Source: an uncultured Candidatus Saccharibacteria bacterium
GTDB taxonomy: Bacteria > Patescibacteriota > Minisyncoccia > Phycocordibacterales > G965230995
Assembly: GCA_965230995.1 (NCBI GenBank)
Contig: OZ246398.1
Location: 464,213 to 528,212 of the forward strand
Direction of reading: 5' to 3'
DNA length: 64,000 nucleotides
The notes under the pieces are model-generated. The model ran no database searches. It was not told where the DNA came from and saw only the letters and a list, made by a program, of their open reading frames with translations. Both the position numbers and the translations under genes were made by a program. Below, one piece after another: positions 1-24,599 of the stretch; positions within the stretch are counted from its first letter, which is position 1, and each line of letters opens with the position of its first letter.

Positions 1-120
1 GAAGTTGGTCGCTACAGGACCGAGGAAGAAGCCGTCGAGGCGAAGTGCAAGCTGTCGCCCGAGGAACAGCACCGGACGCTTCTGAGGTCGGTCAGGCCAA
101 TGTGTCGGTAGGGTCGAGTC
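1..120 (+). CDS. 3' end of a GC-rich ORF entering the window in frame 1 (…EVGRYRTEEEAVEAKCKLSPEEQHRTLLRSVRPMCR*); hypothetical
   Basis: Open frame from window edge to TAG at 118-120. Codon usage is GC-rich, unlike the AT-rich surroundings. Confidence 0.3.
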
Positions 121-169
121 GTCCAAGAGAGTCATCCTCACGGACGACTTTCTTGTAATATATATACGA

Positions 170-200
170 AAAACCCCAAAGAATATCTTTGGGATTTAAT
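170..200 (-). terminator. Intrinsic terminator hairpin (cccaaaga-atat-ctttggg plus T-run on minus strand), downstream of the partial tRNA-Leu 3' copy
   Basis: Inverted repeat plus U-tract read on the minus strand. Confidence 0.5.
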
Positions 201-204
201 GTTT

Positions 205-224
205 TTGTGGGCAGGAGAGGACTT
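205..224 (-). repeat. Partial duplicate of the tRNA-Leu(TAG) 3' end (T-loop to discriminator, ttgtgggcaggagaggactt). Att-like remnant.
   Basis: Identical 20 nt to 401-420, where the full tRNA ends; diverges upstream of the T-loop. Confidence 0.7.
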
Positions 225-227
225 GGT

Positions 228-290
228 CGCAACTCTTCTGCTACGATAAATCTACGCGACGAAGGTTGCGACCCCGCCTCCGCGACAAGT
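228..290. repeat. Copy A of a ~58-nt conserved module (ggtcgcaactcttctgctacgataaatctacgcgacgaaggttgcgaccccgcctc); forms a 9-bp stem with ~30-nt loop
   Basis: Near-identical copy at 11158-11215. Spurious ORFs 189..395 and 11140..11364 share the peptide NSSATINLR[D/N]EG.DPASAT only because of this nucleotide conservation. Confidence 0.6.
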
Positions 291-359
291 ATTATTTTTC
301 GTAAACTCAAAATAATCTTGTGTACCGCGTCCGGCTTTCAAGTCCTTACTTCCTCACAA

Positions 360-403
360 AACAAAAAGCCCCAGAGCTATTGCTCTGAAGCTTAATGTTT
401 TTG
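360..403 (-). terminator. Intrinsic terminator directly downstream of tRNA-Leu(TAG) (gcttcagagc-aata-gctctgggg plus T-run on minus strand)
   Basis: Hairpin plus U-tract. Confidence 0.6.
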
Positions 404-484
404 TGGGCAGGAGAGGACTTGAACCTCCATGGGTTACCCCGCTTGCTCCTAAGGCAAGTGCGTCTACCATTTCGCCACCTGCCC
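404..484 (-). tRNA. tRNA-Leu (anticodon TAG), long variable arm, CCA not encoded
   Basis: Cloverleaf read by hand: acceptor gggcagg/cctgccc, anticodon loop cttagga, T-loop ttcaagt. Confidence 0.8.
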
Positions 485-571
485 ACTTCGTATTTCTACG
501 GGGGTTATAGTATCATAAAATCTGCTAATAGCAAAAGCCAATTTTGTGTTTTTTATGATAAAATCGATTAA

Positions 572-1588
572 ATGGAATACAGCATAAAGGAATTACTAAA
601 TGACGAAAGGGAATATCCGCTTGAAATATTTGGCGGTTCGTCTTTTACGCAATCAAATATTTATGCAAATTGGCAGACAAAAAAGGGGAGATGGGTCGGC
701 AGATATTTGGTAGAGAAGAATAACAAAACTATAGCTTTCTTTCAGGTAATCGAATATCCGCTTTTTTTTGGTAAAAAATGTTTATACATACCTTATGGCC
801 CAGTTTCGATAGATACTTCGAGAGATTTTTTTGTATTTTTAAAAAATTCTTTGCTCAAGATTTCAAAAGAAAGAGATGCTATTTTTGCTCGAATAGATTT
901 TGATCCAAAAATTGAATCTGATTTGTTAAATAACATTTTTACAAAATCACCGGCTTGCACATACAGCTCTTCTTTCTTCCAGCCAAGATCAGAATGGGTT
1001 CTAGATATATCAAAAAGTGAAGAAGAGATACTTTTACAGATGGAAAAAGACACCAGATATTCTGTAAAGACATCACAAAAAAGAGGAGCCGTGGGTAGTA
1101 TAATCACTGAAGATTTCGGTAAATATTTTGATGATTTTTATAACCTTCTAGAAACGACAGCAAAGAGGAATGGTTTTGGTATTCACGACAAAAAATATTA
1201 CAAGAATATTTTTGAAAGTTTAAGAAAAGAAAATGCGTTTTTATCGATTGTCTCGGGTGAAAATATTTTAGTTATAGATGTGTTTATAATTTTCGGCAAA
1301 ACAGTCCATTATGTTTTTGGATCGAGTAGTAATGAAGAAAGAAACAAATTGCCTTCATATATGGCGATTTGGAATGCTATTTTATATGTAAAAGAAAAAG
1401 GAATAGAAAATATTAATTTTGGCGGATATTCTGCCGAAGCAAAAAAAGAAAAATGGAGTGGTTTTTCTATTTTTAAAAAAGGTTGGGGTGGGGAAGAATT
1501 AAAACATTCTGATTTTTTTGATATTGTATCAAATCGTTTTTGGTATTATCTGTATTCTTTTATTAAAAAGATAAAGACCTATATATAG
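572..1588 (+). CDS. FemAB-family peptidoglycan interpeptide-bridge aminoacyltransferase (FemX-like)
   Basis: 338 aa; size and sequence pattern resemble the FemAB family. Family-level recognition by eye only. Confidence 0.45.
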   Translation: MEYSIKELLNDEREYPLEIFGGSSFTQSNIYANWQTKKGRWVGRYLVEKNNKTIAFFQVIEYPLFFGKKCLYIPYGPVSIDTSRDFFVFLKNSLLKISKERDAIFARIDFDPKIESDLLNNIFTKSPACTYSSSFFQPRSEWVLDISKSEEEILLQMEKDTRYSVKTSQKRGAVGSIITEDFGKYFDDFYNLLETTAKRNGFGIHDKKYYKNIFESLRKENAFLSIVSGENILVIDVFIIFGKTVHYVFGSSSNEERNKLPSYMAIWNAILYVKEKGIENINFGGYSAEAKKEKWSGFSIFKKGWGGEELKHSDFFDIVSNRFWYYLYSFIKKIKTYI

Positions 1589-1649
1589 TTTTAACCGCCC
1601 GGCCATATGCACATCGTGCACTGGGTTCGGGCGGTTGCGTCGGCTATCC

Positions 1650-2153
1650 TTAGTAGCCGAGGGATTGTTTTTGTCTGTTGATGATCATCCTCACGGTTTG
1701 AGGTGAGGGGGTGAGCATGCGGTCCCCGCACACCTGAAGGTGCGCCTCCTTAATCAGGTGATTGAGTGTGAATGCCAGATCTGCAATGTCGGTCGCAGGG
1801 GGGATCACCACCTGTGGTGGAACGTGACCGGGTTTTTCTGGCGGGCTCTTAACCTTTGACCAGAGCCCGCACGTGACGGTACTCAGGACGTTGTGTCGTA
1901 CCAACCGGCGTTGGTATCTCTGCATCAGACGCCTGTGATAACACAAGTCGTTTTCAGCCTTGAGACGCATTTCTTCGTCTCGAATGGCCTGACTGATGAC
2001 CCCGTCCCAGCTGACCGGGATCCACTCTCCGTGCAGGTAAGATGGAAGGAGCACTCTCGAGAGAGCCTCTGTCATCATTGGGCACGTGAAGGGAGATCCT
2101 GCGATCGTGTACGGCACGATCGCAATTTCTCGTGGTTTCGGCAAATCTCTCAC
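1650..2153 (-). CDS. Hypothetical protein encoded in a GC-rich islet (GTG start, RBS aacGGAGG upstream)
   Basis: 167-aa ORF inside a visibly GC-rich ~620-bp insert (about 1590-2215) between the FemAB gene and the tRNA pair. No recognisable domain. Confidence 0.4.
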   Translation of the reverse strand: MRDLPKPREIAIVPYTIAGSPFTCPMMTEALSRVLLPSYLHGEWIPVSWDGVISQAIRDEEMRLKAENDLCYHRRLMQRYQRRLVRHNVLSTVTCGLWSKVKSPPEKPGHVPPQVVIPPATDIADLAFTLNHLIKEAHLQVCGDRMLTPSPQTVRMIINRQKQSLGY

Positions 2154-2329
2154 AAAAACCTCCGTTTGGCTTCAAGGTTCGGCTTCCGGTTCCGCAAAAA
2201 ATATAACCTAATATAGTAAAATAGTCAAATTTTTAATTCACACATACAATGAATTTTCTTGTTCTTGAAGAATTAATATTTTTTAAACAAAAAACCTCAA
2301 AGCATTACTTTGAAGCTTAATGTTTGTAG

Positions 2330-2411
2330 TGCCGAGGATGGGGGTTGAACCCATATCCCGTTAGGGACACGATTTTAAGTCGTGCGCGTATACCAATTCC
2401 GCCACCCCGGC
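2330..2411 (-). tRNA. tRNA-Leu (anticodon TAA)
   Basis: Acceptor gccgggg/cctcggc, anticodon loop cttaaaa, long variable arm, T-loop ttcaacc. Confidence 0.8.
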
Positions 2412-2418
2412 ATAGGTG

Positions 2419-2492
2419 AGGTGCAGGCCGGGGTTGAACCGGCGCATAACAGTTTTGCAGACTGTCGCGTTAACCAACTTCGCCACTGCACC
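2419..2492 (-). tRNA. tRNA-Cys (anticodon GCA)
   Basis: Acceptor ggtgcag/ctgcacc, anticodon loop ctgcaaa, T-loop ttcaacc. Confidence 0.8.
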
Positions 2493-2623
2493 ATATTTAT
2501 TTTTTCAATGTTCAAGCTCTAAATAATCATATCTGTAGTTAGCCTCCGCTAGCCGGTGGACTACCCCTACCAATGCTTGTTATTTCAAGCATATACATTT
2601 ATATCATAAAAAAAGACCAGGTT

Positions 2624-2956
2624 CTACCTATTTTTGTCTGATTGAATTATGTGTTCAATCTTCTGTCTGTTCTTTTCTCCCATATCAATTTCAAATGAAA
2701 AATGGGGGAGAACTCTCATACGAATCTTTCCCTTGAGAAAATTTCTCATTTCTATTCTTTTTCTGTTGAGAAAATCCATCACAGCTTCCTCTTTTTCTTC
2801 GGGTAATACAGAAACATACACTATTACATCTTTGCCTTTGTTTTGTAATTCTATATTTGTAACAGTTATGAGCGAAGTTCTGTTTGATTGCAAACCGATG
2901 AACTGTGCTGTCATATTTTTTATTGCCTCGATTGTTCTTTCTTCTTTTATGCTCAT
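2624..2956 (-). CDS. rbfA: Ribosome-binding factor A
   Basis: 110 aa, RbfA-like sequence, immediately downstream of infB (conserved infB-rbfA order). Confidence 0.7.
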   Translation of the reverse strand: MSIKEERTIEAIKNMTAQFIGLQSNRTSLITVTNIELQNKGKDVIVYVSVLPEEKEEAVMDFLNRKRIEMRNFLKGKIRMRVLPHFSFEIDMGEKNRQKIEHIIQSDKNR

Positions 2957-2957
2957 A

Positions 2958-4463
2958 TTATTTTTGAACTGTTGAAAAACCTCTTATTATATCTCCTTCA
3001 GAAATTTCAAATTTTGATTCTATCATCATTCCAAATTCTCCTGTGGTTATCTCTCGCGTCTTTTCTTTTTGTTGCTGAATTTCTTGGATATTGCCTTTGC
3101 CGATTTCTGCTTCTTTCCTGATTACTTTTACCATATCTCCGATTTTAAGTGATCCAGAGAGCATCTTGCCCCCGATAACGTGTTGATCTTTTCTATTGCT
3201 AAATACTTTTAATATTTTGGCTTCTCCGGTGACTTCATCTACGAGAGAAAGGGGAGTCCTTTCTTTTAATGCGTTCTTTAGCCAATCTGTTAATTCGTAT
3301 ATTATTCCGAATGATTTTACAGTGATGTTTGTTCGTTCAATAAGGCTCTGTGCTTTTGAGTCGATTTTTGTATTAAATGCAAGGATTATTGTGTCTGGGT
3401 TAGAAGATGCTGTTTTTATGTCATTTTCAGAAACAGCTCCGATGTCTGTGTAGATTACTTGTGTTCTTATCCTTTCGTCTAATTCCATTTTGGATATTTC
3501 ATAGACCACTGCATCGGCACTCCCTGATGTGTCTGCCCTGACTATTATTGGAATTGTTTTTTTGTTCGGGTCTTCTTCGCATTGAGAAAAATTAGAACAA
3601 TCTATCTCTGCTTTATTTTCTTTTGCATAACTCTCGGCTTCTTTTTTTGTATCGAATGTGACAAAGGTGCTTCCAACGCAAGGTTGTCCTGTCCAGCCGA
3701 TTATTTTTACTGGTGAAGAAAAACTTGCACTAGATATCATTTCACCGAGAAAGTTTTCCATTATTCTAACCGGGGAATACGCACCGGCTGTTGCAACATA
3801 CGAACCTTTTTCTAGTATCCCGTCTTTGATTACCAAAGTAGCCACGGAACCTTTTTTTGGATCCATATTGCTCTCGATGACTATTCCGCTAGCATTATTT
3901 TTTTTGTTTGCTTTTAGATCTTCAAGCTCTGCCACAAGAATTATCATATCCAAAAGATCGTCGACTCCTTTTCCTGTCTTTGCGGATATTGGCACAGCGG
4001 GGATTGTTCCACCCCATCCCTCAACGTATATTTCGTTTTCAGCAAGGCTTTGTTTTGTCCTCTCTATGTTTGCTGTTTCTTTGTCGATTTTGTTTATTGC
4101 GACTATGTACGGGATTTTACCTTGGAGAATACATTTCAAAGCGTCGATTGTTTGTGGTTTTACACCTTCTTCGGCAGATACGACGAGTATTGCAATGTCG
4201 GCGACTTTCACACCGCGTGTTCTGATTGCAGAAAAAGCCTCGTGACCTGGGGTATCCAAAAACGTTATTTTAGATTGAGCCCCTTCTTTTGTTTTGTGAT
4301 CTACTTCGTAAGCAGATAGGTGTTGAGTAATGCCACCTTGTTCGTTTGCGACGATATTTGTTTTGCGGATATAGTCAAGTAGCGTCGATTTACCGTGATC
4401 GATGTGTCCCATTACCGCTACAACTGGCGGTCTTTGTATTGTGTTTTCTTTCTTGGTTTCCAT
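2958..4463 (-). CDS. infB: Translation initiation factor IF-2 (short form)
   Basis: GTPase G1 motif VAVMGHIDHGKSTLLD, then G-domain and C-terminal beta-barrel domains. Confidence 0.9.
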   Translation of the reverse strand: METKKENTIQRPPVVAVMGHIDHGKSTLLDYIRKTNIVANEQGGITQHLSAYEVDHKTKEGAQSKITFLDTPGHEAFSAIRTRGVKVADIAILVVSAEEGVKPQTIDALKCILQGKIPYIVAINKIDKETANIERTKQSLAENEIYVEGWGGTIPAVPISAKTGKGVDDLLDMIILVAELEDLKANKKNNASGIVIESNMDPKKGSVATLVIKDGILEKGSYVATAGAYSPVRIMENFLGEMISSASFSSPVKIIGWTGQPCVGSTFVTFDTKKEAESYAKENKAEIDCSNFSQCEEDPNKKTIPIIVRADTSGSADAVVYEISKMELDERIRTQVIYTDIGAVSENDIKTASSNPDTIILAFNTKIDSKAQSLIERTNITVKSFGIIYELTDWLKNALKERTPLSLVDEVTGEAKILKVFSNRKDQHVIGGKMLSGSLKIGDMVKVIRKEAEIGKGNIQEIQQQKEKTREITTGEFGMMIESKFEISEGDIIRGFSTVQK

Positions 4464-4495
4464 CGCGGTATTTTTTAGCTACTAATTGCTCCATT

Positions 4496-4963
4496 TTATT
4501 TAATTGAATTTTGTGCTTTGTTTATAACATCACGTTCTTCTTCGGAAAGTTCAAAATCAGAGCTGTTCGAAGTGAGACCTTTTGCAAAAACGCTAACGCG
4601 ATCTCTTGAGTAGAGGCTCGAAATTACTACTCCATTGCCGTCTTCGTCGATAAAAGCAGATGCAAAGCTCTGGTTTCCACCAGCACCTGTTCCCTTGAAT
4701 GGATTGAATCTGATTACTTTGACTGCTTGTATGCTTCTTCTGATTCTCTTGTCATCATAAACAAGTTGTTTTTCGGTTTTTTTTCTGAATTCCTCGATTT
4801 TTTCAATCTCCTTGCTGATTGTTTTGATTGAATCTTCGATGGATACACTTCCTTTTCCAAGAAGCATCTTGCCCATCCTCATTTCTATTCTTATTAACCA
4901 AATGGCGATTATCACAATAACCGCAAGTAAAACAATGATAAGTTGGTTTATGTCGAGTATCAT
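4496..4963 (-). CDS. DUF4446-like membrane-anchored protein
   Basis: N-terminal TM helix; RFNPF…GGNQSF motif typical of DUF4446. Confidence 0.45.
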   Translation of the reverse strand: MILDINQLIIVLLAVIVIIAIWLIRIEMRMGKMLLGKGSVSIEDSIKTISKEIEKIEEFRKKTEKQLVYDDKRIRRSIQAVKVIRFNPFKGTGAGGNQSFASAFIDEDGNGVVISSLYSRDRVSVFAKGLTSNSSDFELSEEERDVINKAQNSIK

Positions 4964-5134
4964 AGATGTATTTTAAAAAAACTATTATTTCCCCGAACCG
5001 CTTTAAAGTCTACAAGAAACCATTATACATATTGACAGGGCTTTTGTAAAACTACATTGTAATGTAACATACAATACATATGAATATATTTAATATTCTA
5101 AAAAAGAAAAAAAAGAGCAAAGATTCAATATATA

Positions 5135-6267
5135 TGGACTATGCGTCTGCGACTTTTGTTTTACCAGAAGTCCATACGGCTATGGAACCATTTTTTGATA
5201 AAAATTTTTCTAACCCAGCGAGCCTATATCAAAGTGGTTTAGATGCAAGAGAAGCAATTTCAAATGCACGAAAAGATATTGCGAATGTAATTGGTTGTAG
5301 GCCAAATGAAATATATTTTACCGCAAGCGGAACCGAATCAAACAATATGGCATTTTTGGGATTGCGAGACAAAAATGGCAGGTTTGATGGTATGCATTTT
5401 GTGACAATGAAAACAGAACATTCTTCTGTTAAAGAAATAACAAAAGAAATTGAAAGACTTGGTGGAAGTGTGAGCTGCGCAAAATCTAACGACGACGGAA
5501 TTATTGATCTTGAAGATCTAGAACTATTGATCAAGAAAGAAACTGTGATGGTTTCCGTAATGATGGTTAATAATGAAATCGGGACAATACAACCCATAAA
5601 GGAAATTGCATCTGTAATAAGACGAGCAAACAAAAAATTTGGAAAAGAAATTATTTTTCATACTGATGCTTGCCAGGCACCGCAATATCTAAAAATAGAG
5701 ATAGAAAAATTAGGTGTTTCTATGCTTACGCTTGATTCTTCAAAAATTTATGGACCAAAGGGGATCGGTATGCTTTATGTTAAAAAGGGAATTAATTTAA
5801 AGCCGATAATTTTTGGTGGTGGTCAGGAGGGGGGCTTGCGTTCGGGGACAGAAAACGTCGCAGGTATTGTTGGATTTGCTAAAGCGATGGTTATTGTAGA
5901 TTCCGATAGGAAAAAAGAAACAGAGAGAATAAAAAATATCAGAGATTATGCTTTTAAAAAAATTACAGAAAATTTTCCGTCAGCGATTATAAATGGATCT
6001 GTAGAATCTAGAATTGCAAATAATATCAATGTTTGTTTTCCTGGTATCGATTCTGAATTTGTTGTAATAAAATTAGGATACGAAGGAATAGAATGTTCTT
6101 ACGCAAGCACTTGCAAGACCTTGGGTAACGATAATTCTTCTTATGTTCTAGAAGCAATTGGAAAAAAAGATTGTGCAACTTCATCGCTAAGGTTTACTTT
6201 CGGTAGAAAAACAGAAAAAGAAGACATTGATATTTTGATCAGTACACTAAAAAAGATTATTGCTTAG
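5135..6267 (+). CDS. Cysteine desulfurase (class V aminotransferase, NifS/IscS-like)
   Basis: TASGTESNN and PLP-lysine region SSKIYGPKGIG. The ORF track starts at 5080, but the conserved N-terminus begins at MDYASATF (5135). Confidence 0.8.
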
Positions 6268-6285
6268 TGTTCTTTTATTTTATTT

Positions 6286-7134
6286 TTGCTATCATATATC
6301 TATATGGAAGACCTCACAAAACAACAAGTAATTTTGCTGGCTCTGCTCCTGTCTTTTGTTACATCAATCGGAACTGGAATTATAACCGTGTCACTTTTAG
6401 ACGAGGCGCCAGAGACTGTTACCCAGACAATAAACCGAGTCGTTGAGAGAACAATAGAAAACGTCTTGCCAACCGAGACGACCATAAAAGAAACAGAGAC
6501 TCAGACCAGAGTAGTAGTAGAAAAAGATGACACGATATCAAACGCAATATCTAAATCCTCAAAAGCATTGGTGAGAGTTTATACTGCATCAGGCGAAGAT
6601 CGTGCGTTCTTTTCAATGGGTGTTGTAGTAAGGGACGATGGACTTGTTGCTGTATCTTCTTTAGGTTTTGTTCCGACTTACAAATACATTGCTGTCTTTG
6701 ATGACAAAAAGGAATACGAATTGAAAGCTTCCGAAGAAGAATCTGTTTCTGAAATTGCTTTTCTCAAAGCTGTTTTGAAAGAAGAAGAAAATAAAAAATT
6801 TGATATCGCAGAAATTATCTCTCCCAAGGATTTAAAACTCGGTCAGACAATAATAAATATCGGAGGCGATAAAAATATGTCTGTTCAGGTGGGCAGGATT
6901 TCATCTCTACCAAAACTTAAAGACAAAGATGAAAAAGAATATATATCTGCAATAGAAACAGACATAAGTTCGGCCACATTAGGAAGCGTTATTGTTGATT
7001 TGTCGGGAATGATTGTGGGCTTTAATTCGATAGTCGGAGATCTAAAATTAAACAAATCTTTTACCCCGGCCCAAAATCTAATTCCAATTAAAAAAGAAGT
7101 CGTAGAAACCCCTCCAACAAACAACAATCCATAA
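6286..7134 (+). CDS. Membrane-anchored protein with a degenerate trypsin/HtrA-like fold (predicted inactive)
   Basis: N-terminal TM. The region aligns loosely with the HtrA protease domain, but the His and the GNSGG serine motif are absent. Confidence 0.3.
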   Translation: MLSYIYMEDLTKQQVILLALLLSFVTSIGTGIITVSLLDEAPETVTQTINRVVERTIENVLPTETTIKETETQTRVVVEKDDTISNAISKSSKALVRVYTASGEDRAFFSMGVVVRDDGLVAVSSLGFVPTYKYIAVFDDKKEYELKASEEESVSEIAFLKAVLKEEENKKFDIAEIISPKDLKLGQTIINIGGDKNMSVQVGRISSLPKLKDKDEKEYISAIETDISSATLGSVIVDLSGMIVGFNSIVGDLKLNKSFTPAQNLIPIKKEVVETPPTNNNP

Positions 7135-7206
7135 TTTGACTCTATTTCGTTAGTGTTGTATTTATAGAAGTATAATAATTTATAAGAATAGTTAATAAAT
7201 GAACAT

Positions 7207-9897
7207 ATGCCACCGTTCAATGATTTTACGACAAAGGCGAAAGAAGCAATCAGAAAGGCGCACGAGCTTGCAATAGAAAGGGGACAAAATCACGTGAGCC
7301 CTCTGCATCTTTTGACTGCTTTGGTTTTGCAAGAAGAATCGATGGTAGCTTCTATCATAGACAAACTAGAAGTAGATTCGATATTACTTACAGATTCAAT
7401 TATCGATTCGATAGAGGTCGCAGAAGGTGCGAGAACCGTATCGCCTGCATATCAAATATATTTAACTCCAGAAATGGCGCGTGTCCTCGAGGACAGCGTT
7501 AGAATAGCAAAAGCTCTGGGTGATGAATTTGTATCCACAGAGCATCTATTCATTGCAATTTCAGATATCACTGGTCCGGCAAAAGATTTGCTACGAAGAT
7601 TCAAGATTACAAAAGAAAGCATAGAAAAAGTTCTCGAAGAATTAAAAAACAGTAAAGATGCAGATATACAAAAACCAAAGAGATTCAGGACTCTGCATAA
7701 ATACACAAGAAATCTCACAAAGCTCGCTTCAGAAAACAAACTCGATCCAGTCATCGGAAGAGATAAAGAAATTTCTCGAATAATACAGATTCTCTCGAGA
7801 AGAACAAAAAATAACCCGATATTGATAGGAGAAGCTGGTGTTGGAAAAACCGCAATCGTCGAAGGCTTAGCCACCAGAATTGCAACAGGTGATGTACCAG
7901 AATCATTAAAAGACAAAGAGATGGTTTCTCTTGATCTTGGCCTTCTTATTGCTGGTACAAAATACAGAGGAGAATTCGAGGAAAGACTAAAGGCTCTCCT
8001 CAAAGATATAGAAAAATCAGACGGAAAGATAATTCTTTTTGTTGATGAAATTCATACAATAGTCGGAGCCGGTTCTTCAGAAGGTTCTATGGATGCTTCT
8101 AATATGCTAAAGCCCGCACTTGCAAGAGGCGAGCTTCGAACTGTTGGCGCGACAACTTTGCGTGAGTATCAAAAACATATCGAAAAGGATCCTGCTCTCA
8201 CAAGAAGATTTCAGCCTGTAATGGTTTCTGAACCTTCAATTGATGATGCGATGACTATTTTGCGAGGCTTAAAAGAAAAATACGAGCTCTATCACGGTGT
8301 CAGAATCACAGATGAAGCAATCAGGGCTGCTGTTAATTTATCTGCTAGATATATTTCAGATAGATTTTTGCCAGACAAAGCTGTTGACTTGATCGACGAA
8401 GCGTCTTCGCAATTAAAGATTTCTCTAGAAAATATGCCTCCGATTTTGCAAGAGACAAGATCAAAAGTGATGAAGCTTGAAATTGAGAGGGAAGCTTTAA
8501 ACAAAGAACTTTTGGATCACAAAGATTCAAAGATAGAAGACAGGCTAAAAGAAATTGAAAAAGCTGTTGCTGATTTGAAAGAAAAGACTGCCGAAATAGA
8601 GCTTAAATGGAAAAACGAAAAAGAAACAGTTTCTGACATAAAAAGAATTAAAAAAGATTTGGAAACCTTGAGACTCGAAGCCGAGGGTGCAGAAGCAAGG
8701 GCAGATTTGTCAAAAGCTGCTGAAATAAGATATGGAAAAATACCAGAACTAGAGAGAGAGCTTGATCAGAAAAGCAAGAGACTAAAAAGACTCCAGAGCT
8801 CTCGAAGAATATTAAAAGAAGAAATTACAGAACCGGACATTGCCGAAGTGGTTTCAAGATGGACTGGTGTACCTGTCACAAGGATGCTTGAGAGTGAAGC
8901 TGAAAAATTACAGAGAATGGAAGAAAAGCTTCACGAAAGAGTTGTCGGTCAAGAAGAAGCTGTCAAAAAAGTATCTGATACGATCAAGAGATCAAGAGCG
9001 GGGATTGCAGACCCAAACAAACCAATCGGATCGTTCTTGTTCCTTGGTCCAACTGGTGTTGGTAAAACAGAATTAACCAAAGCCTTGGCAGAATTTCTAT
9101 TTGATGATGAAAAGGCTCTCATCCGAGTCGATATGTCTGAATATATGGAGAAACATGCAGTGTCTAAAATAATCGGTGCTCCACCAGGATATGTTGGATA
9201 TGAAGAGGGTGGTACACTAACAGAACAAGTCAGACATAGACCATATTCTGTAATTCTCTTTGATGAAATTGAAAAAGCTCATCCCGATGCGTTTAATATC
9301 TTGCTCCAAGTCCTAGACAACGGAAGACTTACGGATGCAAAAGGTAGAACTGTTAATTTCAAAAACACAGTCATTATCCTTACTTCAAACATTGGAGCTC
9401 AGTACATAGACAAGATGGAGAAATTAGGATTCTCGAAAAGTGACAACAAGGAAAAAGAAAATTATGAAGATGTAAAATCTAAAGTCCTTGAGAGCTTGAA
9501 AGACCATTTCAAACCGGAATTCATAAACAGATTGGATGAAATAATCGTATTTGATGTGTTGTCAAGAGAAGCAATTTCAAAGATAGTCGAGATACAGATA
9601 TCTATGGTCAAAGAAAGATTGTCTCAGAAAGATGTGGCTCTCGAGGTTACAAATGATGCTCTGGAATATCTTGCAAAAGAAGGTTACAACCCTGAATACG
9701 GAGCAAGGCCTTTAAAGAGAATTATACAATCAAAGATTCTTAACCCAGTTGCGTCCCTTATGATTGGAAAGGGAATAACCAGAGGAGGTTCAATAACTAT
9801 TGGATTCAAAAAAGATGAATTAACATTCGATGTTAAAAAGGGGAGGCGTGGCTCGCTATTTCAAGAAGAAGTTATAAAGGAAACAGTGACATCATAA
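7207..9897 (+). CDS. clpB: ClpB chaperone (two AAA+ modules with long coiled-coil middle domain)
   Basis: N-domain, Walker A GEAGVGKT and GPTGVGKT, M-domain coiled coil; 896 aa. Confidence 0.9.
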
Positions 9898-9935
9898 TAT
9901 TTCAAAAACCGCACACAGTGCGGTTTTTGAAACGT
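9898..9935. terminator. Bidirectional intrinsic terminator (aaaaaccgc-acacagt-gcggttttt)
   Basis: Perfect hairpin with flanking A/T runs between convergent genes. Confidence 0.6.
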
Positions 9936-9975
9936 TAAAGCCCCAACCGGGTGGGGCTCGTGTTCGCGCAGTCCT

Positions 9976-10161
9976 TCACTGCTCTTCTCTCTTCATGCAT
10001 TCAGCAATTGCAATGAACAAGCCAGCAATTGCTACTGTGAAGCAGATGACGGTAATGATGAAGAACCCTTTCTTGCTGAAGCCTACACCAAAGTAAGCCC
10101 CGAAGAAGAGCATCAAAATTCCAATCACTGCTGGACGAAAAAGATCTTTGATTAGCTTCAT
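9976..10161 (-). CDS. Small two-TM membrane protein, hypothetical
   Basis: 61 aa, two hydrophobic helices. Confidence 0.35.
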   Translation of the reverse strand: MKLIKDLFRPAVIGILMLFFGAYFGVGFSKKGFFIITVICFTVAIAGLFIAIAECMKREEQ

Positions 10162-10216
10162 TTTGGAAGCCCTCCTTCAATATAGAATCTACATTATTTT
10201 TCTATGTGTATCAATG

Positions 10217-11044
10217 TTATAGATCTGCTCTTATGCACATAGAAAAATTTTGTGCATTTTCGCAAGATTTTCCAATATCTGTAATTCGGTATTTTTCTTT
10301 CAAGACTTCAAATTCTCCTACATCATCAATTAGACCATGATCATAAGCCAATTTATCAGAATATGCAGGTAGGACATATTTGTAGCTAAAACCAATCTGA
10401 GAATCTTTGTCAGCGATTCTGTTTACGTGTTTAACGAGGGTGTTTGTGCAGTTGTTCGTAATGGTGTTATAGAATTGTGGTTTGTTGTAGAGACTATTAG
10501 TTTTGTTCATCATATCCATAAACAAGTCTCTAGCCTTTGTCTTGCTTATTTTTATCGGGTACATGTAGACATTTCCATCCTCTCTATAATTTGTTCGAAG
10601 TTTTGTAACGTCTCTTTCGTCTGCAACAACATATATCATTTCAAACTGTCTAAACATGCCTTTGAATACATTATAAGATTCGCCTTTTTCTCTTCGTGCT
10701 TCGATTGAAATTGCAACACGTTTTCCATCTTCAAAACCAAAAACAACATAAGTGTGTGCAGTTGGTGGGTTAAATGGTGCGACAACAAAATCCACCGCAT
10801 AAAGTTTTGATAGATCGTATGTTTCGTCGTAATAACCGGGAGTAAAATCTAGAGTAGATTTATATGTAAAATTTCTTACATTGTATATCTTCATCATATC
10901 CCCGTTCATTTCAAAGTGAGCAAGCTTTTCATTGTCGACAACCCAATCACGGTTGTTGCTTGGTCTGACAATGAGAGCAAAGATGCACCATCCGATAAAT
11001 AAAATAATTATTATCCAAACTAAAACTTTTAGAAATTTTTTCAT
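10217..11044 (-). CDS. DUF4105-like exported protein (N-terminal signal anchor)
   Basis: 275 aa with NNCTN motif and DUF4105-like pattern. Confidence 0.45.
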   Translation of the reverse strand: MKKFLKVLVWIIIILFIGWCIFALIVRPSNNRDWVVDNEKLAHFEMNGDMMKIYNVRNFTYKSTLDFTPGYYDETYDLSKLYAVDFVVAPFNPPTAHTYVVFGFEDGKRVAISIEARREKGESYNVFKGMFRQFEMIYVVADERDVTKLRTNYREDGNVYMYPIKISKTKARDLFMDMMNKTNSLYNKPQFYNTITNNCTNTLVKHVNRIADKDSQIGFSYKYVLPAYSDKLAYDHGLIDDVGEFEVLKEKYRITDIGKSCENAQNFSMCIRADL

Positions 11045-11061
11045 AAATACATTTTACATTA

Positions 11062-11440
11062 ATAGGGAGGGCGTGGCGAGGAGAGGGGTTGAGGGTCCGA
11101 ACCTTACGGGGTTAGTACCGTGATTGGATTTAGGAGGGATTGATTGAGGAATTCGGTCACAACTCTTCTGCTACGATAAATCTACGCAACGAAGGTCGCG
11201 ACCCCGCCTCGGCTACAGTTTCTCGTTCCTCGAAACTGGCTTCGCAGCCTCCGTCTTTCGAATCCCTCCCTATACGCTACATAAGTACAACAAAAAAACG
11301 CTATCGCGTTTGTTTTGTGTATTTTGTGAGGACTCGAACCTTACAGGTTCAGTGCATAAGTTAGGATTTTGATTGGGAGGGATTGATCCCGCAGTTACTA
11401 AGTAAAATAATTCGTTCGTAAACTCACTCTTATTTTACTA
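11062..11440. repeat. Mosaic of short repeated modules upstream of tRNA-Tyr. Includes an X module (gaaccttacRGgttMagt…gattggattt) at ~11088 and ~11336, a Z module (ggagggattgat) at ~11122 and ~11376, Y module copy B at 11158-11215, and ttcgtaaactca at ~11410 (also at ~303).
   Basis: Direct sequence comparison with 205-320 and 18544-18600. Internal terminator-like hairpin at ~11296-11325. Confidence 0.6.
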
Positions 11441-11573
11441 AGTACTGCTGGACGCGGCTCGACGTCGTACTCGCTCCGCTCCGTGCGACATGTCTCCGCC
11501 GGTTCGAATCCCACGCAAAAGCAAAACTGCTTTTGCTTCCCTACGCAAAAATGCACCAAAGGTGCATTTTTTT

Positions 11574-11655
11574 GTGCGTAGGGAGGGATTCGAACCCCCG
11601 TAGACTATGTCGCCTGATTTACAGTCAGGTGCGATTGACCACTCCGCCACCTACG
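11574..11655 (-). tRNA. tRNA-Tyr (anticodon GTA), long variable arm
   Basis: Acceptor gcgtagg/cctacgc, anticodon loop ctgtaaa, T-loop ttcgaat. Spurious ORF 11438..11650 overlaps it. Confidence 0.8.
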
Positions 11656-11766
11656 CATTTATAGGAACGAGTATAACATACTTTAATATTTTTGGTAGGG
11701 CAAAAAAGTATGACAAAATGGCAATTTTTGATATCATAAATACCATATAAATTTAATCCATTTTTT

Positions 11767-12618
11767 ATGCAGAAACATGTTGCTGTAATTGGTTTTGGTT
11801 ACGTGGGAAAGGCTGTTGCGAATTTTCTTTCAAATAGATACATGGTTCATGTCTTTGACCCCTTTATTTCTGATGATTTGCCAGAACTAAAAAACCCAAA
11901 CATTAGGAGAGAGCAAACGAAAGAAGCCATAAACACAGTATGTGAATTTGCTGTCATTTCTGTGCCAACACCACAGGGTGGAGATGGTTCTGTTGATTTG
12001 TCTCATGTCGAAGAAGTGCTCGCTTGGTTATCTGTGCCTTTGATGATGATAAAAAGCACCGTACCACCTGGAACTGTTAAGAAACTTAAAGAAAAGACTG
12101 GCAAGAGAATTGTTTTTTCACCTGAATATATTGGTGAAGGAAATTATTTTATTCCATTTTGGAAAGGTTATCCTGACCCAAACGATATGCGAAAGCATGA
12201 ATTTATGATTGTTGGCGGAGAGAAAAAAGATACTTCAGATGCTCTTGAATATTTCAAATTAATTTATGGGGCAGATGTTAGATTTGTTCAAACAGACAGT
12301 ACAACTGCTGAACTGTGCAAATATATGGAAAACTCTTTTCTTGCAACAAAAGTTACTTTCTGTAATGAATTTTTTGAAATTGCCAGCTCGCTTGGAGTTG
12401 ATTATGACGAGCTCAGAGAAATGTGGCTACTCGATGGACGTATTGGCAGGTCACACACAGCGGTCTTTAAACACAAAAGAGGGTTCAGTGGAAAATGTTT
12501 ACCGAAAGATGTTAATGGAATAGTAAAGCGAGCAGAAGAATCTGGATACAACCCAAAACTTCTTAAATCAGTTCTAGATGTAAATAACGATTTTCTTAAA
12601 AAGAATCCACAGCAGTAA
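11767..12618 (+). CDS. Nucleotide-sugar dehydrogenase family protein (UDP-glucose/GDP-mannose dehydrogenase N-terminal and central domains only)
   Basis: Rossmann motif VIGFGYVGKAV and catalytic Cys motif GFSGKCLPKD. Stops at 283 aa without the C-terminal UDP-binding domain; alr starts 3 nt later. Confidence 0.6.
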   Translation: MQKHVAVIGFGYVGKAVANFLSNRYMVHVFDPFISDDLPELKNPNIRREQTKEAINTVCEFAVISVPTPQGGDGSVDLSHVEEVLAWLSVPLMMIKSTVPPGTVKKLKEKTGKRIVFSPEYIGEGNYFIPFWKGYPDPNDMRKHEFMIVGGEKKDTSDALEYFKLIYGADVRFVQTDSTTAELCKYMENSFLATKVTFCNEFFEIASSLGVDYDELREMWLLDGRIGRSHTAVFKHKRGFSGKCLPKDVNGIVKRAEESGYNPKLLKSVLDVNNDFLKKNPQQ

Positions 12619-12620
12619 AA

Positions 12621-13769
12621 ATGATTGAAAAAAAGGATAGGCTAGGTTTGCGGGTATGGATAGAGATAAACAAAAAAGCTCTCCTTCATAATGTTTCTGT
12701 GCTTAAAAAAATAATTGGGAAAAATACCAATTTTTGTGCTGTGGTCAAATCAAATGCTTACGGGCATGGGTTGTCTACCATATCTCAAATATTAGAAAAT
12801 GAAAAAGACGTTAATATGCTTGCGGTTGATTCGATAACAGAAGCAACCAGATTACGTGATGCTGGTATTAAGAAACCTATTTTGGTTTTAGGCTATACTC
12901 TAAAAGAAAATATTTCGATTGCTATCGAAAGAGATATTACAATAACTGTGTCGCATTTTGACTCTCTGTCTGATGTTGTCTCAGTTACAAATGAAATAAA
13001 AAAACAGATAAAAATAAATTTAAAAATAGATACAGGAATGCATAGGCAGGGATTTTCTTTAGAAGATATTTCTCTTGTAATTTCTAAACTAAAAGAAAAC
13101 AAAAATAATATTATTTTATCTGGTGTCTATACCCATTTTGCTTCTGCAAAAAATCCACAGAATACATCTCTTACAGAAACACAACTCAAAAACTTTTCTG
13201 TGGCTAGAAATATTTTTATGAAAGAGGGGATAGAAACTTTTTATCATACAAGCGCTAGTGCTGGTTCGATAATTCACAAGGATTCTCATTTTGATATGGT
13301 GAGGATTGGTGCCGGTCTGTATGGAATGTATCCATCCGAAGAGATAGAAAAGACATTCTCAGATGAAATTGTTCTCGAGCCTGTGCTTTCTCTGAGGTCA
13401 ATCATAAGTGAAATCAAGACAATAAAAACTGGTGAAGGTGTGGGGTATGATCACAGTTTTGTTGCAAAGAGAGATACCAGAATTGCCATTGTTCCTGTTG
13501 GATATTGGCACGGTGTATCTAGGTCTCTTTCAAATATTGGTAACGTAATAGTATGCGGGAAAAAAGCTCCTATTGTTGGCAGAATTTCAATGGATATGAT
13601 GACGATCGATATTACAGATATTGAAGCCAATTTACTTGATGTTGTTACAATTATTGGGGAAGAAAAAGACTCTACAATAGATTTGAAATATTGTGCAAAA
13701 AAGGCTGGGACATCTGAATACGAATTTGTGACGAGGCTCAATCCTTTGATAAAGAAAATAGTTGTATAA
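12621..13769 (+). CDS. alr: Alanine racemase
   Basis: PLP-lysine motif AVVKSNAYGHG, C-terminal beta domain. Confidence 0.85.
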   Translation: MIEKKDRLGLRVWIEINKKALLHNVSVLKKIIGKNTNFCAVVKSNAYGHGLSTISQILENEKDVNMLAVDSITEATRLRDAGIKKPILVLGYTLKENISIAIERDITITVSHFDSLSDVVSVTNEIKKQIKINLKIDTGMHRQGFSLEDISLVISKLKENKNNIILSGVYTHFASAKNPQNTSLTETQLKNFSVARNIFMKEGIETFYHTSASAGSIIHKDSHFDMVRIGAGLYGMYPSEEIEKTFSDEIVLEPVLSLRSIISEIKTIKTGEGVGYDHSFVAKRDTRIAIVPVGYWHGVSRSLSNIGNVIVCGKKAPIVGRISMDMMTIDITDIEANLLDVVTIIGEEKDSTIDLKYCAKKAGTSEYEFVTRLNPLIKKIVV

Positions 13770-13868
13770 ATACAGTTCTCATTTTAAAAAAATGTGCTAG
13801 TATTACTCCGGTTGTTCTTTAATATGTATTGGCAATATTTGCCGATACGCTCCGCATAAGTCGGAGCC

Positions 13869-13940
13869 TGGGCCTATAGTTTCAATGGTAAAACGTCGGT
13901 CTCCAAAACCGTTGTTCTCCGTTCGAGTCGGAGTGGGCCC
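13869..13940 (+). tRNA. tRNA-Trp (anticodon CCA)
   Basis: Acceptor gggccta/tgggccc, anticodon arm tcggt-ctccaaa-accgt, T-loop ttcgagt. Confidence 0.7.
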
Positions 13941-13995
13941 GCAAACAAAAAACCGCGTCCGCCAGCTGGCGGAGCGGTTTTTTGTTTGCTGGGCG
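13941..13995. terminator. Long nested palindrome terminator (gcaaacaaaaaaccgc-gtccgccagctggcggag-gcggttttttgtttgc)
   Basis: 16-bp outer stem, inner hairpin, T-runs on both sides. Confidence 0.6.
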
Positions 13996-14099
13996 GAGGT
14001 ATGTGCGTTTGCACATTACGTCTCCGACTCGAAAGGGGGAGTTTTTTGAGCTTTGTATTTGTATAGAATTTTATCTTTCATTGTGCTATCCTTTTGTAA

Positions 14100-14498
14100 A
14101 TGAAAAAAGTTTTAATCATCGGTCCAGAACCAAAGGGGGAAGTAGACATAAACAAATACAATTCACTTGTAAAAATATGTGTTGATTTCGATTGCGAGGT
14201 TATCTCTTCTCCAATAAATAGCATTCAAGGAGAAGCTTTTTCTGATTATTCTGATATTTTTAACGACATAGCAGATGCAGATATGATAATTGCAGATGTA
14301 TCAGAAGAATCAATTTTACTCGGTATGCAACTTAGAGAAGTTGATCATTTAAATAAACCATTAATTGTTATTGTAAAAGCAGGAAAAACTGCTTCGCATA
14401 TTCTGGATGGCATTCCAACTATTGCTGAAATACTTGAATATGAAGAAATAGAAGATATTACAGATGGAATTCAGCGAAACTTTACAGTAATAGAATAG
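14100..14498 (+). CDS. Hypothetical small Rossmann-like protein (possibly nucleoside 2-deoxyribosyltransferase-like)
   Basis: 132 aa; MKKVLIIGPEP… pattern. Weak, by eye only. Confidence 0.25.
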   Translation: MKKVLIIGPEPKGEVDINKYNSLVKICVDFDCEVISSPINSIQGEAFSDYSDIFNDIADADMIIADVSEESILLGMQLREVDHLNKPLIVIVKAGKTASHILDGIPTIAEILEYEEIEDITDGIQRNFTVIE

Positions 14499-15425: not shown

Positions 15426-15550
15426 ATTGAGAACCTAATATTGTTCTAAATATAGATTTTTGTCTACACAAAAACCGCTTAACGCGGTTTGTTGTTAGTG
15501 CTGTTATCATTATGCATTTTTTTAATGCCATCCTTAATATTTATTGATAT

Positions 15551-15826: not shown

Positions 15827-15832
15827 AATTTA

Positions 15833-16900: not shown

Positions 16901-16901
16901 T

Positions 16902-17957: not shown

Positions 17958-17970
17958 GTTATTTTAAAAA

Positions 17971-24591: not shown

Positions 24592-24599
24592 TTTCAAAG

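Follow-up and report, generated by a model that had tools for sequence, protein, structure and literature searches.

The T-loop is a known sublocation of att sites within tRNA genes. In tRNA-associated genomic islands bounded by attL and attR, and in CIMEs, a direct repeat begins in the T-loop, the tRNA is left intact, and a small element without an integrase gene can lie between the repeats. The same features are found behind the tRNA-Leu(TAG) gene of an uncultured Candidatus Saccharibacteria bacterium, within the 64,000-nucleotide stretch of contig OZ246398.1 analyzed here (the window). The element at this position, E1, and its relatives differ from the island remnants in that their arms are specific to many tRNAs, an inverted copy of the tRNA end is also present, the interior is a covarying three-way junction, and no integrase is linked to them.

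The tRNA-like noncoding RNAs (YrlA Y RNAs, mascRNA, the viral TLS, and the tRNA-like domain of tmRNA) resemble the elements in having a closing helix of acceptor and T-stem type and a 3' end at the discriminator. By analogy, maturation of the elements by tRNA-end enzymes is plausible. However, the elements lack a D arm, an anticodon arm, and a true T-loop, their closing helix is entirely Watson–Crick, and each tRNA gene has its own element, which copies its neighbor. Neither ARAGORN nor the Rfam tRNA model detects the elements as tRNAs. Like MITEs, REP/BIME repeats, and tRNA-derived SINEs, the elements are short, noncoding, highly structured, multicopy, intergenic, and sometimes arranged in tandem; unlike these, they lie strictly behind a tRNA on the same strand, with arms re-templated from the neighbor. 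A MITE or classical transposon was rejected as an identification, as there are no fixed terminal inverted repeats and no target duplication of fixed length; the arms vary with the tRNA, and the identity spans approximately 18–64 nt.

The primer-binding sites of retroviruses and LTR retrotransposons also contain about 18–21 nt complementary to a specific tRNA 3' end, extending into the T-loop. In contrast, the complement in the elements lacks CCA, is paired in cis to a sense copy, and resides in a bacterial chromosome; with no adjacent ORF or linked reverse transcriptase at the element either, this identification was not retained. A further possible likeness is to archaeal tRNA introns with box C/D guides and to the tigRNAs of TIGR-Tas, which are likewise tRNA- or CPR-associated and combine tandem sheared-GA (K-turn-like) motifs with target-complementary segments. 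The elements have no box C/D consensus, and their arms of 19–26 nt are paired to one another. A tigRNA has a length of 36 nt and two spacers of 9 nt each (PMC12045711); TIGR-Tas arrays were rejected because both the unit size and the spacer logic differ. Hammerhead and other known self-cleaving ribozymes were set aside as well, since by our reasoning the order of the junction strands does not fit, and there was no Rfam hit. Full-text literature searches found no description of such elements, and the family has apparently not been described so far.

The tRNA-Leu(TAG) gene, which has no encoded CCA, lies on the minus strand at 404–484, as called by both ARAGORN and the Rfam tRNA model (59.3 bits; the two place the start at 403 or 404), in agreement with the first-pass annotation of this DNA. 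It is followed by terminator 1 (356–393, minus strand), which the terminator scan identified as a hairpin at 393→366 and a T-run; this had also been proposed before. The previously reported duplication of the tRNA 3' end is real, although its length had been given as 20 nt. We find an exact repeat of 30 nt, with a proximal copy at 392–421 and a distal copy at 196–225, both on the minus strand (repeat family D1). It comprises the last 19 nt of tRNA-Leu(TAG), starting at the T-loop CAAGT and running to the discriminator, together with an 11-nt trailer, CAAAAACATTAA. In the distal copy, the tRNA-derived part (207–225) is the 3' arm of the element, and 196–206 is the copied trailer. When up to three mismatches are allowed, the repeat has two matches in the window and none in any of 100 shuffles. 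A hairpin and then a T-run follow each copy. The hairpin of terminator 2 (170–193) had likewise been noted; it was found at 175–193, but the scan lists it on the plus strand, and it is the reading of the minus strand that gives the hairpin followed by GTTTTTCG. Terminator 2 is common to E1 and a convergent GC-rich ORF that ends at approximately 108. An AP2-like identity considered for the end of this ORF (1–108) was dropped, as there was no Pfam hit. The DNA immediately to the left of the locus, at 1–160, is GC-rich and foreign-looking.

Between the two repeat copies lies an element with a complete architecture. The intervening DNA had been described as a hairpin module plus ttcgtaaactca; instead, E1 (about 196–361, minus strand) consists of a closing helix P1 and two further helices, P2 and P3, which together form a three-way junction. 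A covariance model of type II elements (R2, see below) matches it at 208–351 on the minus strand over all model positions, 1–130 of 130, with 70.5 bits and an E-value of about 1e-18. Since R2 was built from ten type II elements of other genomes, with no sequence from the window in its seed, this test is independent. E1 begins 52 nt past the end of the tRNA gene, has no coding capacity, and has no adjacent ORF.

The 5' arm of P1, GTGAGGAAGTAAGGACTTGAA (337–357, minus strand), is an inverted copy of the tRNA-Leu(TAG) 3' end, as seen from the inverted repeats I1 and I2, the fold, the R2 alignment, and the sequence itself. It agrees with a perfect complement at 16 of 21 bases; the part derived from the T-loop and T-stem is fully matched (10/10), and the acceptor part has decayed. 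The 3' arm (207–225) matches the tRNA 3' end at 15 of 15 positions. The P2 helix (276–335, minus strand) is formed by GCC...GGC, CGCG/CGCG, and ACAAGAUUAUUUU/AAAAUAAUACUUGU. It is capped by a U-GA-G...C-GA-A loop, GAGUUUACGA, at 299–308; the assignment is based on the fold, on type II covariation, and on the homologous P2 helices of loci L107 and L011 (CGGTAYACAAG...CTTGTCG). P3 (226–273, minus strand) is a long hairpin, GGUCGCAACC...GGUUGCGACC, which corresponds to the core of the 58-nt module recognized in the first-pass annotation and to the type II P3, with homologs in L004 and other loci. The junction of E1 carries CTTGAAAGCCGGA, GGAGGCGGGGTCGC, and GCGACCAAGTCC in alignment A4, in keeping with the type II consensus of GAAAG(A/C)CGGA, GAGGCGGGGUCG, and G(C/U)GACC ahead of the 3' arm.

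The proposal that the two segment ends pair (aaggactt / aagtcct) was borne out. This helix closes a 158-nt fold with z = −5.3, and it corresponds to the P1 that is conserved and covaries throughout the family. For the read-through transcript (196–484), the fold has z = −8.4. Its minimum free energy structure resembles a tRNA carrying an insertion of about 196 nt in the T-loop, in which the tRNA 3' end, terminator 1, and the 5' arm form one long quasi-palindrome (inverted repeat I1, 337–361 versus 399–423, 80% complementary).

Further elements occur in the window. The second copy of the 58-nt module, reported at 11158–11215, is contained in E2b, a second type II element behind tRNA-Tyr (11138–11271, minus strand; R2, 76.9 bits), whose 5' arm, TAGGGAGGGATTCGAA, is a perfect complement of the 3' part of tRNA-Tyr. 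Positions 225–280 and 11155–11210 are 94.6% identical over 56 nt (E = 5e-20), and the two elements that share this 95% identical module within one genome have different P2 helices. Directly behind tRNA-Tyr (11574–11656) lies E2a (11315–11517, minus strand), in which a type II element at 11369–11517 (R2, 34.2 bits) is fused to a type I-like P3/3' module at 11315–11394 (R1, 27.9 bits). A 20-mer from the 58-nt module has no match in IMG/VR and none in the GTDB representatives, a set that does not contain the source genome, and the module was rejected as a widespread repeat. Its exact sequence is confined to one lineage; P3 hairpins that are homologous to it but have diverged occur at other loci. 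E3 (18540–18678, minus strand; fold z = −5.7), identified from the sequence, is a type I element behind tRNA-Leu(CAA) (18708–18790), and its score of 90.7 bits with R1 is not independent, as its sequence was part of the R1 seed. E3 ends with an exact 23-nt copy of the tRNA-Leu(CAA) 3' end, followed by CAAAAACATTAA and a terminator.

E1 is a type II member of a family of structured elements of about 100–170 nt in Patescibacteria. In metagenome-assembled genomes of this group, the elements lie directly behind tRNA genes on the tRNA strand and fall into two related cassette types, I and II. A separate model was built for type II because the type I model, R1, barely detects E1 (11.2 bits). An exact motif, the 18-mer ACTGAACCTGTAAGGTTC, served as the seed for the type I hits; it occurs in at least 118 stretches of GTDB representative genomes, and among those with an assigned phylum nearly all belong to Patescibacteria. 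Of 121 hits, 95 follow a tRNA on the same strand, at distances that cluster at 96–149 nt, and the tRNAs concerned have 31 different anticodons. Type II elements occur behind at least 12 tRNA species, either 45–78 nt behind the tRNA or behind a type I unit, with a spacing like that of E1 in L004, L064, L096, L065, L098, L073, and L082. Some units are arranged in tandem arrays, and a terminator-like hairpin follows every unit. In some relatives, no terminator separates the tRNA from the element. Near-identical cassettes are found at different tRNAs within one genome, and at orthologous tRNAs the window has type II elements where other genomes have type I. The motif is nearly absent from viral sequences, with 2 hits in 2.9 million IMG/VR viral contigs, and a phage origin was rejected on this basis. 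Searches against Rfam 15 returned only tRNAs at gathering thresholds, nothing over the elements in window positions 1–19000 at E ≤ 5, and nothing over the elements at four loci with canonical members at E ≤ 1. In L063, a group I intron hit was traced to the interior of a second tRNA gene and has no connection with the element.

In each element, the 3' end of the neighboring tRNA is present twice, once in direct and once in inverted orientation. A survey of the 300 nt on either side of 152 tRNAs located the complement of the T-loop/T-stem 3' strand 79 times downstream and 4 times upstream, and a direct copy of the 3' end 54 times downstream and never upstream. Eight type II elements have a 15/15 copy of the tRNA 3' end. 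At the tRNA-Tyr loci of seven genomes, the 5' arm of each element tracks the T stem of that genome's own tRNA. The positions at which the tRNA has a G·U pair or a mismatch reveal the origin of this arm: it is the complement of the tRNA 3' strand in 25 of 28 cases in the acceptor stem and in 27 of 35 in the T stem, and in the element helix the G3·U70 pair of tRNA-Ala is replaced by A-U. The 5' arm is thus derived by inversion from the tRNA 3' strand and does not reproduce the 5' strand. By this analysis, the element is neither a copy of the tRNA 5' half nor an aminoacylatable minihelix. A tRNA mimic chargeable by aminoacyl-tRNA synthetases was also rejected, as the cognate acceptor identity pairs are not preserved.

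On its left, the direct repeat always begins in the T-loop, whereas its right boundary differs between loci. Past the T-loop, about 18 to 64 nt are identical. Of the 22 exact cases, 16 have an identity that ends at the tRNA 3' end, with unrelated trailers; at six type I loci, it extends over 27–64 nt and continues 9–46 nt past the tRNA end, at times including the trailer and terminator. The complement in the 5' arm ends at the discriminator plus one genomic base, and a U-run precedes it.

Both structures covary. In alignments that were themselves fitted to the covariance models, 24 of 26 pairs in the type I set (129 hits) and 28 of 31 in the type II set (28 hits) show compensatory changes; the fraction of paired cells is 91.6% for type I (68.6% in shuffles) and 91.9% for type II (65.3%), and the covariation scores are 0.441 (0.118 in shuffles and at most 0.098 with slid partners) and 0.626 (0.193 and at most 0.106), respectively. 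In alignment A6, 10 of the 12 pairs of the type II P3 covary. On the tRNA strand, G·U pairs outnumber A·C pairs by 112 to 50, and one G·U pair of the type II P3 is kept in 20 of 26 sequences. Several unpaired junction and loop nucleotides (GUACU, UGUAA, GAAAG, and GGGGUC) are conserved, as is a tandem-GA hairpin motif.

We propose that E1 is not a scar but a host-maintained, co-transcribed RNA partner of the tRNA gene that may serve, for instance, as a decoy, as a spare copy, or as a platform on which tRNA 3' ends are processed; we consider this somewhat more probable than its alternatives taken together. The apparent duplicate of the tRNA 3' end is the 3' strand of the closing helix P1, built into the element, with the inverted copy of the same tRNA segment, placed right after the tRNA terminator, as its 5' strand. 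Between these arms lies the conserved three-way junction, with P2 under its U-GA-G...C-GA-A cap and P3 as the long hairpin. No promoter is visible for E1 and a good intrinsic terminator separates it from the tRNA, so its transcription would depend on read-through of terminator 1 in the tRNA direction; it would presumably end at terminator 2. The predicted RNA would hold a copy of the last ~20–26 nt of the tRNA in a fully Watson–Crick helix. Carrying the acceptor-stem and T-stem sequence of the neighboring tRNA, this helix might be trimmed by tRNA-end processing enzymes. Selection may keep the arms matched to the tRNA, or the system of quasi-palindrome and direct repeats may correct them from a template. 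The partly decayed acceptor-side arm of E1 (16/21) counts against this RNA reading, and the covariation and the G·U bias would fit a single-stranded DNA intermediate as well. Moreover, the repeats that run past the tRNA end (11 nt here and up to 46 nt elsewhere), the tandem arrays, and the exchange of modules within a genome resemble traces of duplicated or mobile DNA, not of a functional RNA.

The duplication had originally been read as a scar of integration, that is, as the attL/attR remnant of a tyrosine or serine integrase targeting the tRNA, left by a decayed island or by a CIME mobilized in trans by an integrase encoded elsewhere in the genome. The usual T-loop att geometry is indeed present, as the exact 30-nt repeat flanks the insert from the T-loop to beyond the tRNA 3' end, and the GC-rich, foreign-looking DNA at 1–160 is a further point in favor of this reading. 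The segment is also, as had been stated, too small for an integrase gene. An att system, however, would have one fixed core and one or a few target tRNAs, whereas the same cassette families stand behind many tRNA species (31 anticodons for type I), each time with both arms specific to that tRNA. Because both arms derive from the particular tRNA, a fixed attP cannot account for the cassettes, and since the tRNA end invariably occurs in inverted form too, they are not a product of att recombination. The interior is a conserved covarying structure shared with other metagenome-assembled genomes, and 17 ORFs of the window that were scanned, ten between 1650 and 14498 and seven more, contain no integrase domains. 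We consider a classical integrase scar very improbable, and a miniature element mobilized in trans would need a nonclassical, target-copying mechanism. Such a mechanism is envisaged if the cassettes are selfish, non-autonomous mobile elements (MITE-, SINE-, or intron-like) that target tRNA T-loops, a possibility that we take seriously while judging it the less probable one. A cassette bounded by inverted T-loop-like sequences might insert through template switching, target-primed copying, or homologous reintegration of a small circle; insertion would duplicate the target from the T-loop onward, leaving the tRNA intact, and create the inverted arm. This would suit the fixed left and variable right edges of the repeat (9–46 nt past the end at six type I loci and 11 nt in E1), the derivation of the 5' arm by inversion of the 3' strand, the tandem arrays, and the turnover between type I and type II units at orthologous tRNAs. 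The near-identical cassettes at different tRNAs of one genome and the read-through fold, a tRNA with its T-loop interrupted by ~196 nt, point in the same direction. On the other hand, the elements have no linked transposase, reverse transcriptase, or integrase, an autonomous form was not encountered, and viral contigs hold only the two motif hits mentioned above. The identity mostly stops at the tRNA 3' end (16/22) in front of unrelated trailers. In addition, the elements are conserved at orthologous tRNAs of divergent genomes, with compensating helices and invariant unpaired nucleotides, and such upkeep in streamlined genomes of ~0.7 Mb is not expected for junk.

A role at the level of DNA appears unlikely, though less so than an integrase scar. 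Here, the long quasi-palindromes centered on the tRNA terminators would act as cruciforms or single-strand hairpins, serving as fail-safe bidirectional terminators, insulators, or replication and recombination signals, and they would grow and be homogenized by template-switch "quasi-palindrome correction". In agreement with this, a single long inverted repeat spans the tRNA 3' end, the terminator, and the 5' arm, the arms are Watson–Crick copies, and a terminator-like hairpin follows every unit. However, the excess of G·U over A·C pairs on one strand, together with a conserved G·U pair, argues against it, as do the conserved unpaired nucleotides and the tandem-GA hairpin, which are typical of folded RNA and not of duplex DNA; P2 and P3 also lie outside the palindrome. 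Returning to the structured RNA partner that we favor, a bolder extension is that in Patescibacteria most tRNA genes are each accompanied by a "shadow" RNA, or by two. These would form a new class of RNA coupled to tRNAs, in which a spare 3' segment identical to that of the tRNA, from T-loop to discriminator, is clamped by its antisense on a conserved, protein-binding three-way junction. We regard this generalization as speculative and put it forward only tentatively. The task of shadow RNAs might be the protection, repair, or processing of tRNA 3' ends; nucleases attacking tRNA tails or T-loops, for instance, might be countered with a decoy or a spare part. Another possibility is that they direct a factor to tRNA genes, or else to the corresponding attP sites on integrating elements.

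If the elements are what we propose, a class of structured elements has gone unnoticed in an entire bacterial superphylum, with approximately one element for each tRNA gene, copying the 3' end of this neighbor in both directions. Such elements would account for the GC-rich "intergenic" islands that follow tRNAs in the AT-rich genomes of CPR bacteria. In annotation, such repeats are prone to be misread as att sites or as the boundaries of genomic islands. For RNA biology, they add two covarying RNA architectures that are new, in which junctions are conserved and a tandem-GA hairpin recurs. In evolutionary terms, either these minimal genomes would harbor a new cellular function coupled to tRNAs, or mobility would follow a new principle, with the target gene serving as the template from which an element renews its arms. 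The few Patescibacteria that can be cultivated would allow both possibilities to be tested directly.

A 1960-bp Logan contig begins inside tRNA-Leu(TAG) (at ~436) and covers neither E1 nor the DNA farther left, and the closest FemAB relatives in a database of 5.8 billion proteins are only about 54% identical. The window also contains a truncated 5' remnant of an element behind tRNA-Trp (13990–14033, plus strand), which consists of a partial acceptor complement, the H1 hairpin, and CTCCGACTCGAA; the latter matches the complement of the T-loop and T-stem 3' strand at 11 of 12 positions.

The tRNA-Leu(TAG) gene lies on the minus strand at 403/404-484 (ARAGORN; Rfam, 59.3 bits) and is followed by the element E1 (~196-361, minus). 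The first-pass annotation had described a duplicated tRNA 3' end of 20 nt; the duplication is present, but a repeat search gives an exact direct repeat of 30 nt (196-225 = 392-421), longer because it starts inside the T-loop and runs past the discriminator through 11 nt of trailer (on the tRNA strand, CAAGTCCTCTCCTGCCCA followed by CAAAAACATTAA). With up to three mismatches allowed, only these two copies match in the window, and none in 100 shuffles. A terminator scan places a textbook terminator after the proximal copy (393 to 366 plus a T-run, minus). A second terminator, also described earlier, does stand behind the distal copy: the hairpin at 175-193, listed on the plus strand in the scan, is followed on the minus strand by GTTTTTCG. 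The recurrence of a conserved hairpin module of 58 nt, whose core is the inner helix P3 of E1, was likewise recovered (225-280 against 11155-11210, 94.6% identity over 56 nt), and the pairing proposed between the two segment ends closes a three-way junction in the predicted fold of the RNA 204-361 (minus; z = -5.3).

Comparable units occur at other tRNAs of the window; each opens, directly 3' of the tRNA terminator, with the T-loop and T-stem 3' strand of its cognate tRNA in reverse-complement form. Behind tRNA-Leu(CAA) (18708-18790, minus) lies E3, an element of ~140 nt (18540-18678, minus; fold z = -5.7), which closes with 23 nt identical to the 3' terminus of the tRNA, followed by CAAAAACATTAA and a terminator. 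Two units, E2b (11138-11271, minus) and E2a (11315-11517, minus), follow tRNA-Tyr and carry degenerate copies of its 3' end. Behind tRNA-Trp only a truncated 5' remnant is present (13990-14033, plus), consisting of a partial acceptor complement, a hairpin (H1) and CTCCGACTCGAA; the rest of the element is absent, and the cut before a gene promoter makes it look like a decayed unit. The window has a GC content of 36.6% and genes including FemAB, a short IF-2 and ClpB; its source is a Patescibacteria-type genome, and the next-best relatives of FemAB are only ~54% identical. The trailer motif (A)CAAAAACATTAA with a terminator hairpin is found at 2311-2325, 196-206, 392-402 and 18533-18544, at three tRNA-Leu loci or their elements, and the Leu(TAG) and Leu(TAA) terminators look ~80% alike as judged by eye.

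Outside the window, we probed one genome per GTDB species with the 18-mer ACTGAACCTGTAAGGTTC, common to two window elements, and obtained at least 118 stretches. Among the matches listed, nearly all records with a phylum-level name are Patescibacteria; the names, taken from record titles, include Paceibacteria, Nomurabacteria, Parcubacteria, Kaiser-, Zambryski- and Taylorbacteria, Minisyncoccia and MAGs labelled Saccharibacteria. Only two hits were found in 2.9 million viral contigs. In this survey, which was seeded with the exact type I motif and counted among the matches listed, a tRNA precedes the motif on the same strand of the fetched locus for 95 of 121 hits. The interval from tRNA end to motif clusters at 96-149 nt, and 31 anticodons are represented; in 22 of 81 tRNA-motif pairs, the tRNA's own T-loop-to-discriminator sequence is repeated exactly in the 18-20 nt that follow GGTTC of the motif. 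For the 152 tRNAs having both flanks available, a complement of the T-loop/T-stem 3' strand (at least 10/12, within 300 nt) lies downstream of 79 and upstream of 4, and a direct 3'-end copy (at least 12/14, within 300 nt) downstream of 54 and upstream of none.

On the tRNA strand, a unit reads tRNA, trailer and terminator hairpin, 5' arm, cassette, 3' arm and usually a second terminator. The first part of the 5' arm complements the acceptor 3' strand and the second the T-stem 3' strand and T-loop; in type I units H1 often separates them, with a spacing of exactly 25 nt in many copies. The 3' arm repeats the tRNA from T-loop to discriminator. The cassette comprises a junction GAAG or GAAAG, a long helix P2 with the tip motif U-GA-G...C-GA-A, a junction GUACU or GGGGUC, and P3. 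Where the tRNA has a G.U pair or mismatch, the 5' arm complements the 3' strand perfectly (at 25 of 28 sites in the acceptor stem and 27 of 35 in the T stem) and follows the tRNA 5' strand at only one and three sites, respectively. By this comparison, the 5' arm copies the tRNA 3' end in inverted orientation and is not a remnant of the tRNA 5' half. Since such sites become Watson-Crick pairs, as in tRNA-Ala, where G3.U70 turns into A-U, the element helix does not retain the synthetase identity pairs.

Two cassette types can be distinguished. In type I, P3 is short (GAACC-UGUAA-GGUUC). A covariance model, R1, seeded with 31 elements from other genomes and E3, gives 129 hits in 100 loci from the listed matches and barely detects E1 (11.2 bits). 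E1 departs from type I in several respects: its 5' arm is uninterrupted (H1 is missing), its P3 is long, its junction reads GAAAGCCGGA and it carries the motif GAGGCGGGGUCG. Searches with nhmmer and patterns found this build in other MAGs (L019, L004, L107, L011, L076, L063, L003, L039, L101 and L096); P3 of L004 is homologous to the 58-nt module, and P2 of E1 (CGGUAYACAAG...CUUGUCG) recurs in L107 and L011. A second model, R2, seeded with ten type II elements from other genomes and no window sequence, matches E1 at full length (208-351, minus; 70.5 bits, E = 1e-18), E2b with 76.9 bits and E2a with 34.2 bits. E1 is thus a type II element. R2 recovers 28 elements across the fetched loci, placed 45-78 nt behind the tRNA (52 nt for E1) or behind a type I unit; in eight type II units the tRNA 3' end is matched at 15/15 positions.

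In alignments derived from these models, and hence biased towards them, 91.6% of cells are paired in type I (68.6% in shuffles) and 91.9% in type II (65.3%), with compensatory changes in 24 of 26 and 28 of 31 pairs and covariation scores of 0.441 (shuffles 0.118, slid partners at most 0.098) and 0.626 (0.193 and at most 0.106). P3 also covaries in type I hits without the seed motif (GAAGU/ACUUC, GGUCA/UGACC), where the UGUAA loop and GUACU junction stay constant. Among paired columns, G.T outnumbers A.C (112 vs 50 overall, 52 vs 14 in P2), one G.U pair of the type II P3 is kept in 20 of 26 sequences, and the unpaired nucleotides of junctions and loops do not vary. These features point to a folded single strand of tRNA polarity, most simply an RNA. 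Co-transcription is the natural reading in relatives with no terminator between tRNA and element (L004, L008, L010 and L021). Given the good terminator behind tRNA-Leu(TAG), E1 would depend on read-through. Folding of the resulting 289-nt RNA gives z = -8.4; in its predicted minimum, the 5' arm pairs with the tRNA's own 3' part and the distal copy with the 5' acceptor strand of the tRNA, so alternative pairings are available.

The hairpin U-GA-G...C-GA-A (e.g., GAGCAAAGCGAA or GAGTTTACGAA) may be a K-loop-like protein-binding site. It occurs at the P2 tips of most elements, within type II P3 helices, in the T-loop-position insertion of many type I units, and directly after the tRNA in terminator-less trailers (L004, L010, L021 and L048).

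At the tRNA-Tyr loci of seven genomes, including that of the window, an element is present at every one. Its 5' arm matches the T stem of its own genome (TAGG, TTGG, GAGG, AAGG, TGGG), so the arms have followed the tRNA through time; H1 differs in sequence but keeps its hairpin. In 16 of 22 exact cases identity ends no more than 3 nt from the tRNA end and the trailers are unrelated, which argues that selection or templated correction maintains the match between the 3' arm itself and the tRNA. Signs of DNA-level turnover are also seen: direct repeats can reach 9-46 nt beyond the tRNA end into trailer and terminator, elements occur as tandem arrays, orthologous tRNAs bear different unit types, and two window elements with differing P2 helices share the 58-nt P3 at 95% identity.

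From these sequence patterns, we cautiously favor a host-maintained, tRNA-coupled structured RNA. Such an RNA would hold the duplicated tRNA 3' segment within a Watson-Crick helix that resembles the acceptor and T stems and sits on a conserved three-way junction, and would probably be released by tRNA-end processing enzymes; it could act as a decoy, spare part, processing platform or guide. The main rival, a selfish element with T-loops as its target, from which its arms are re-templated, seems less likely to us. Exactly the observed geometry would result if templates were switched at the palindromes of T-loop and terminator, or if a DR-bounded circle re-integrated. A purely DNA-level palindrome function is improbable: it fits the quasi-palindromes but conflicts with the strand-asymmetric G.U pairs and the conserved junctions. 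The classical att scar or cis-mobilisable element of the first-pass annotation fails because the elements are distributed over many tRNAs with tRNA-specific arms, the inverted copy of the tRNA end is obligatory and the structured interior is conserved. No Rfam 15 family matches the elements, and full-text literature searching found no description of them. TIGR-Tas likewise occurs in CPR, yet is a different system from these tRNA-linked elements.

L053 (JBLHQB010000018.1; MAG label Patiriisocius, Flavobacteriaceae) holds six type I-like units (510-603, 2179-2379 and 5097-5553), mostly in two tandem clusters, with no ARAGORN-detectable tRNA upstream, and may be a misbinned contig or carry solo or transferred copies. 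In L063, from a Paceibacterota MAG, a group I intron (3902-4212, plus; Rfam 47.9 bits, slightly below the threshold of 50) sits in the anticodon loop of a tRNA followed by a type I and then a type II element.

The window also contains GC-rich stretches (50-55%) with small orphan ORFs and no Pfam hit, at 1650-2153, 23986-24603, 37974-38567 and 38734-39330 (minus), 53916-54461 and 1-108 (plus), and 30412-31040. At least two, 30412-31040 and 53916-54461, have their own TTGACA-type promoter-like sequence and terminator-like hairpin, and two adjoin tRNA or element loci; the stretches have the appearance of gene cassettes of foreign or selfish origin. Just after tRNA-Gln, a short ORF starting MYHVYILKCKDGTLYTGITNDLDRRFSQHKNG (34217-34470, plus) presumably resembles a GIY-YIG nuclease domain, which we take as a candidate assignment.
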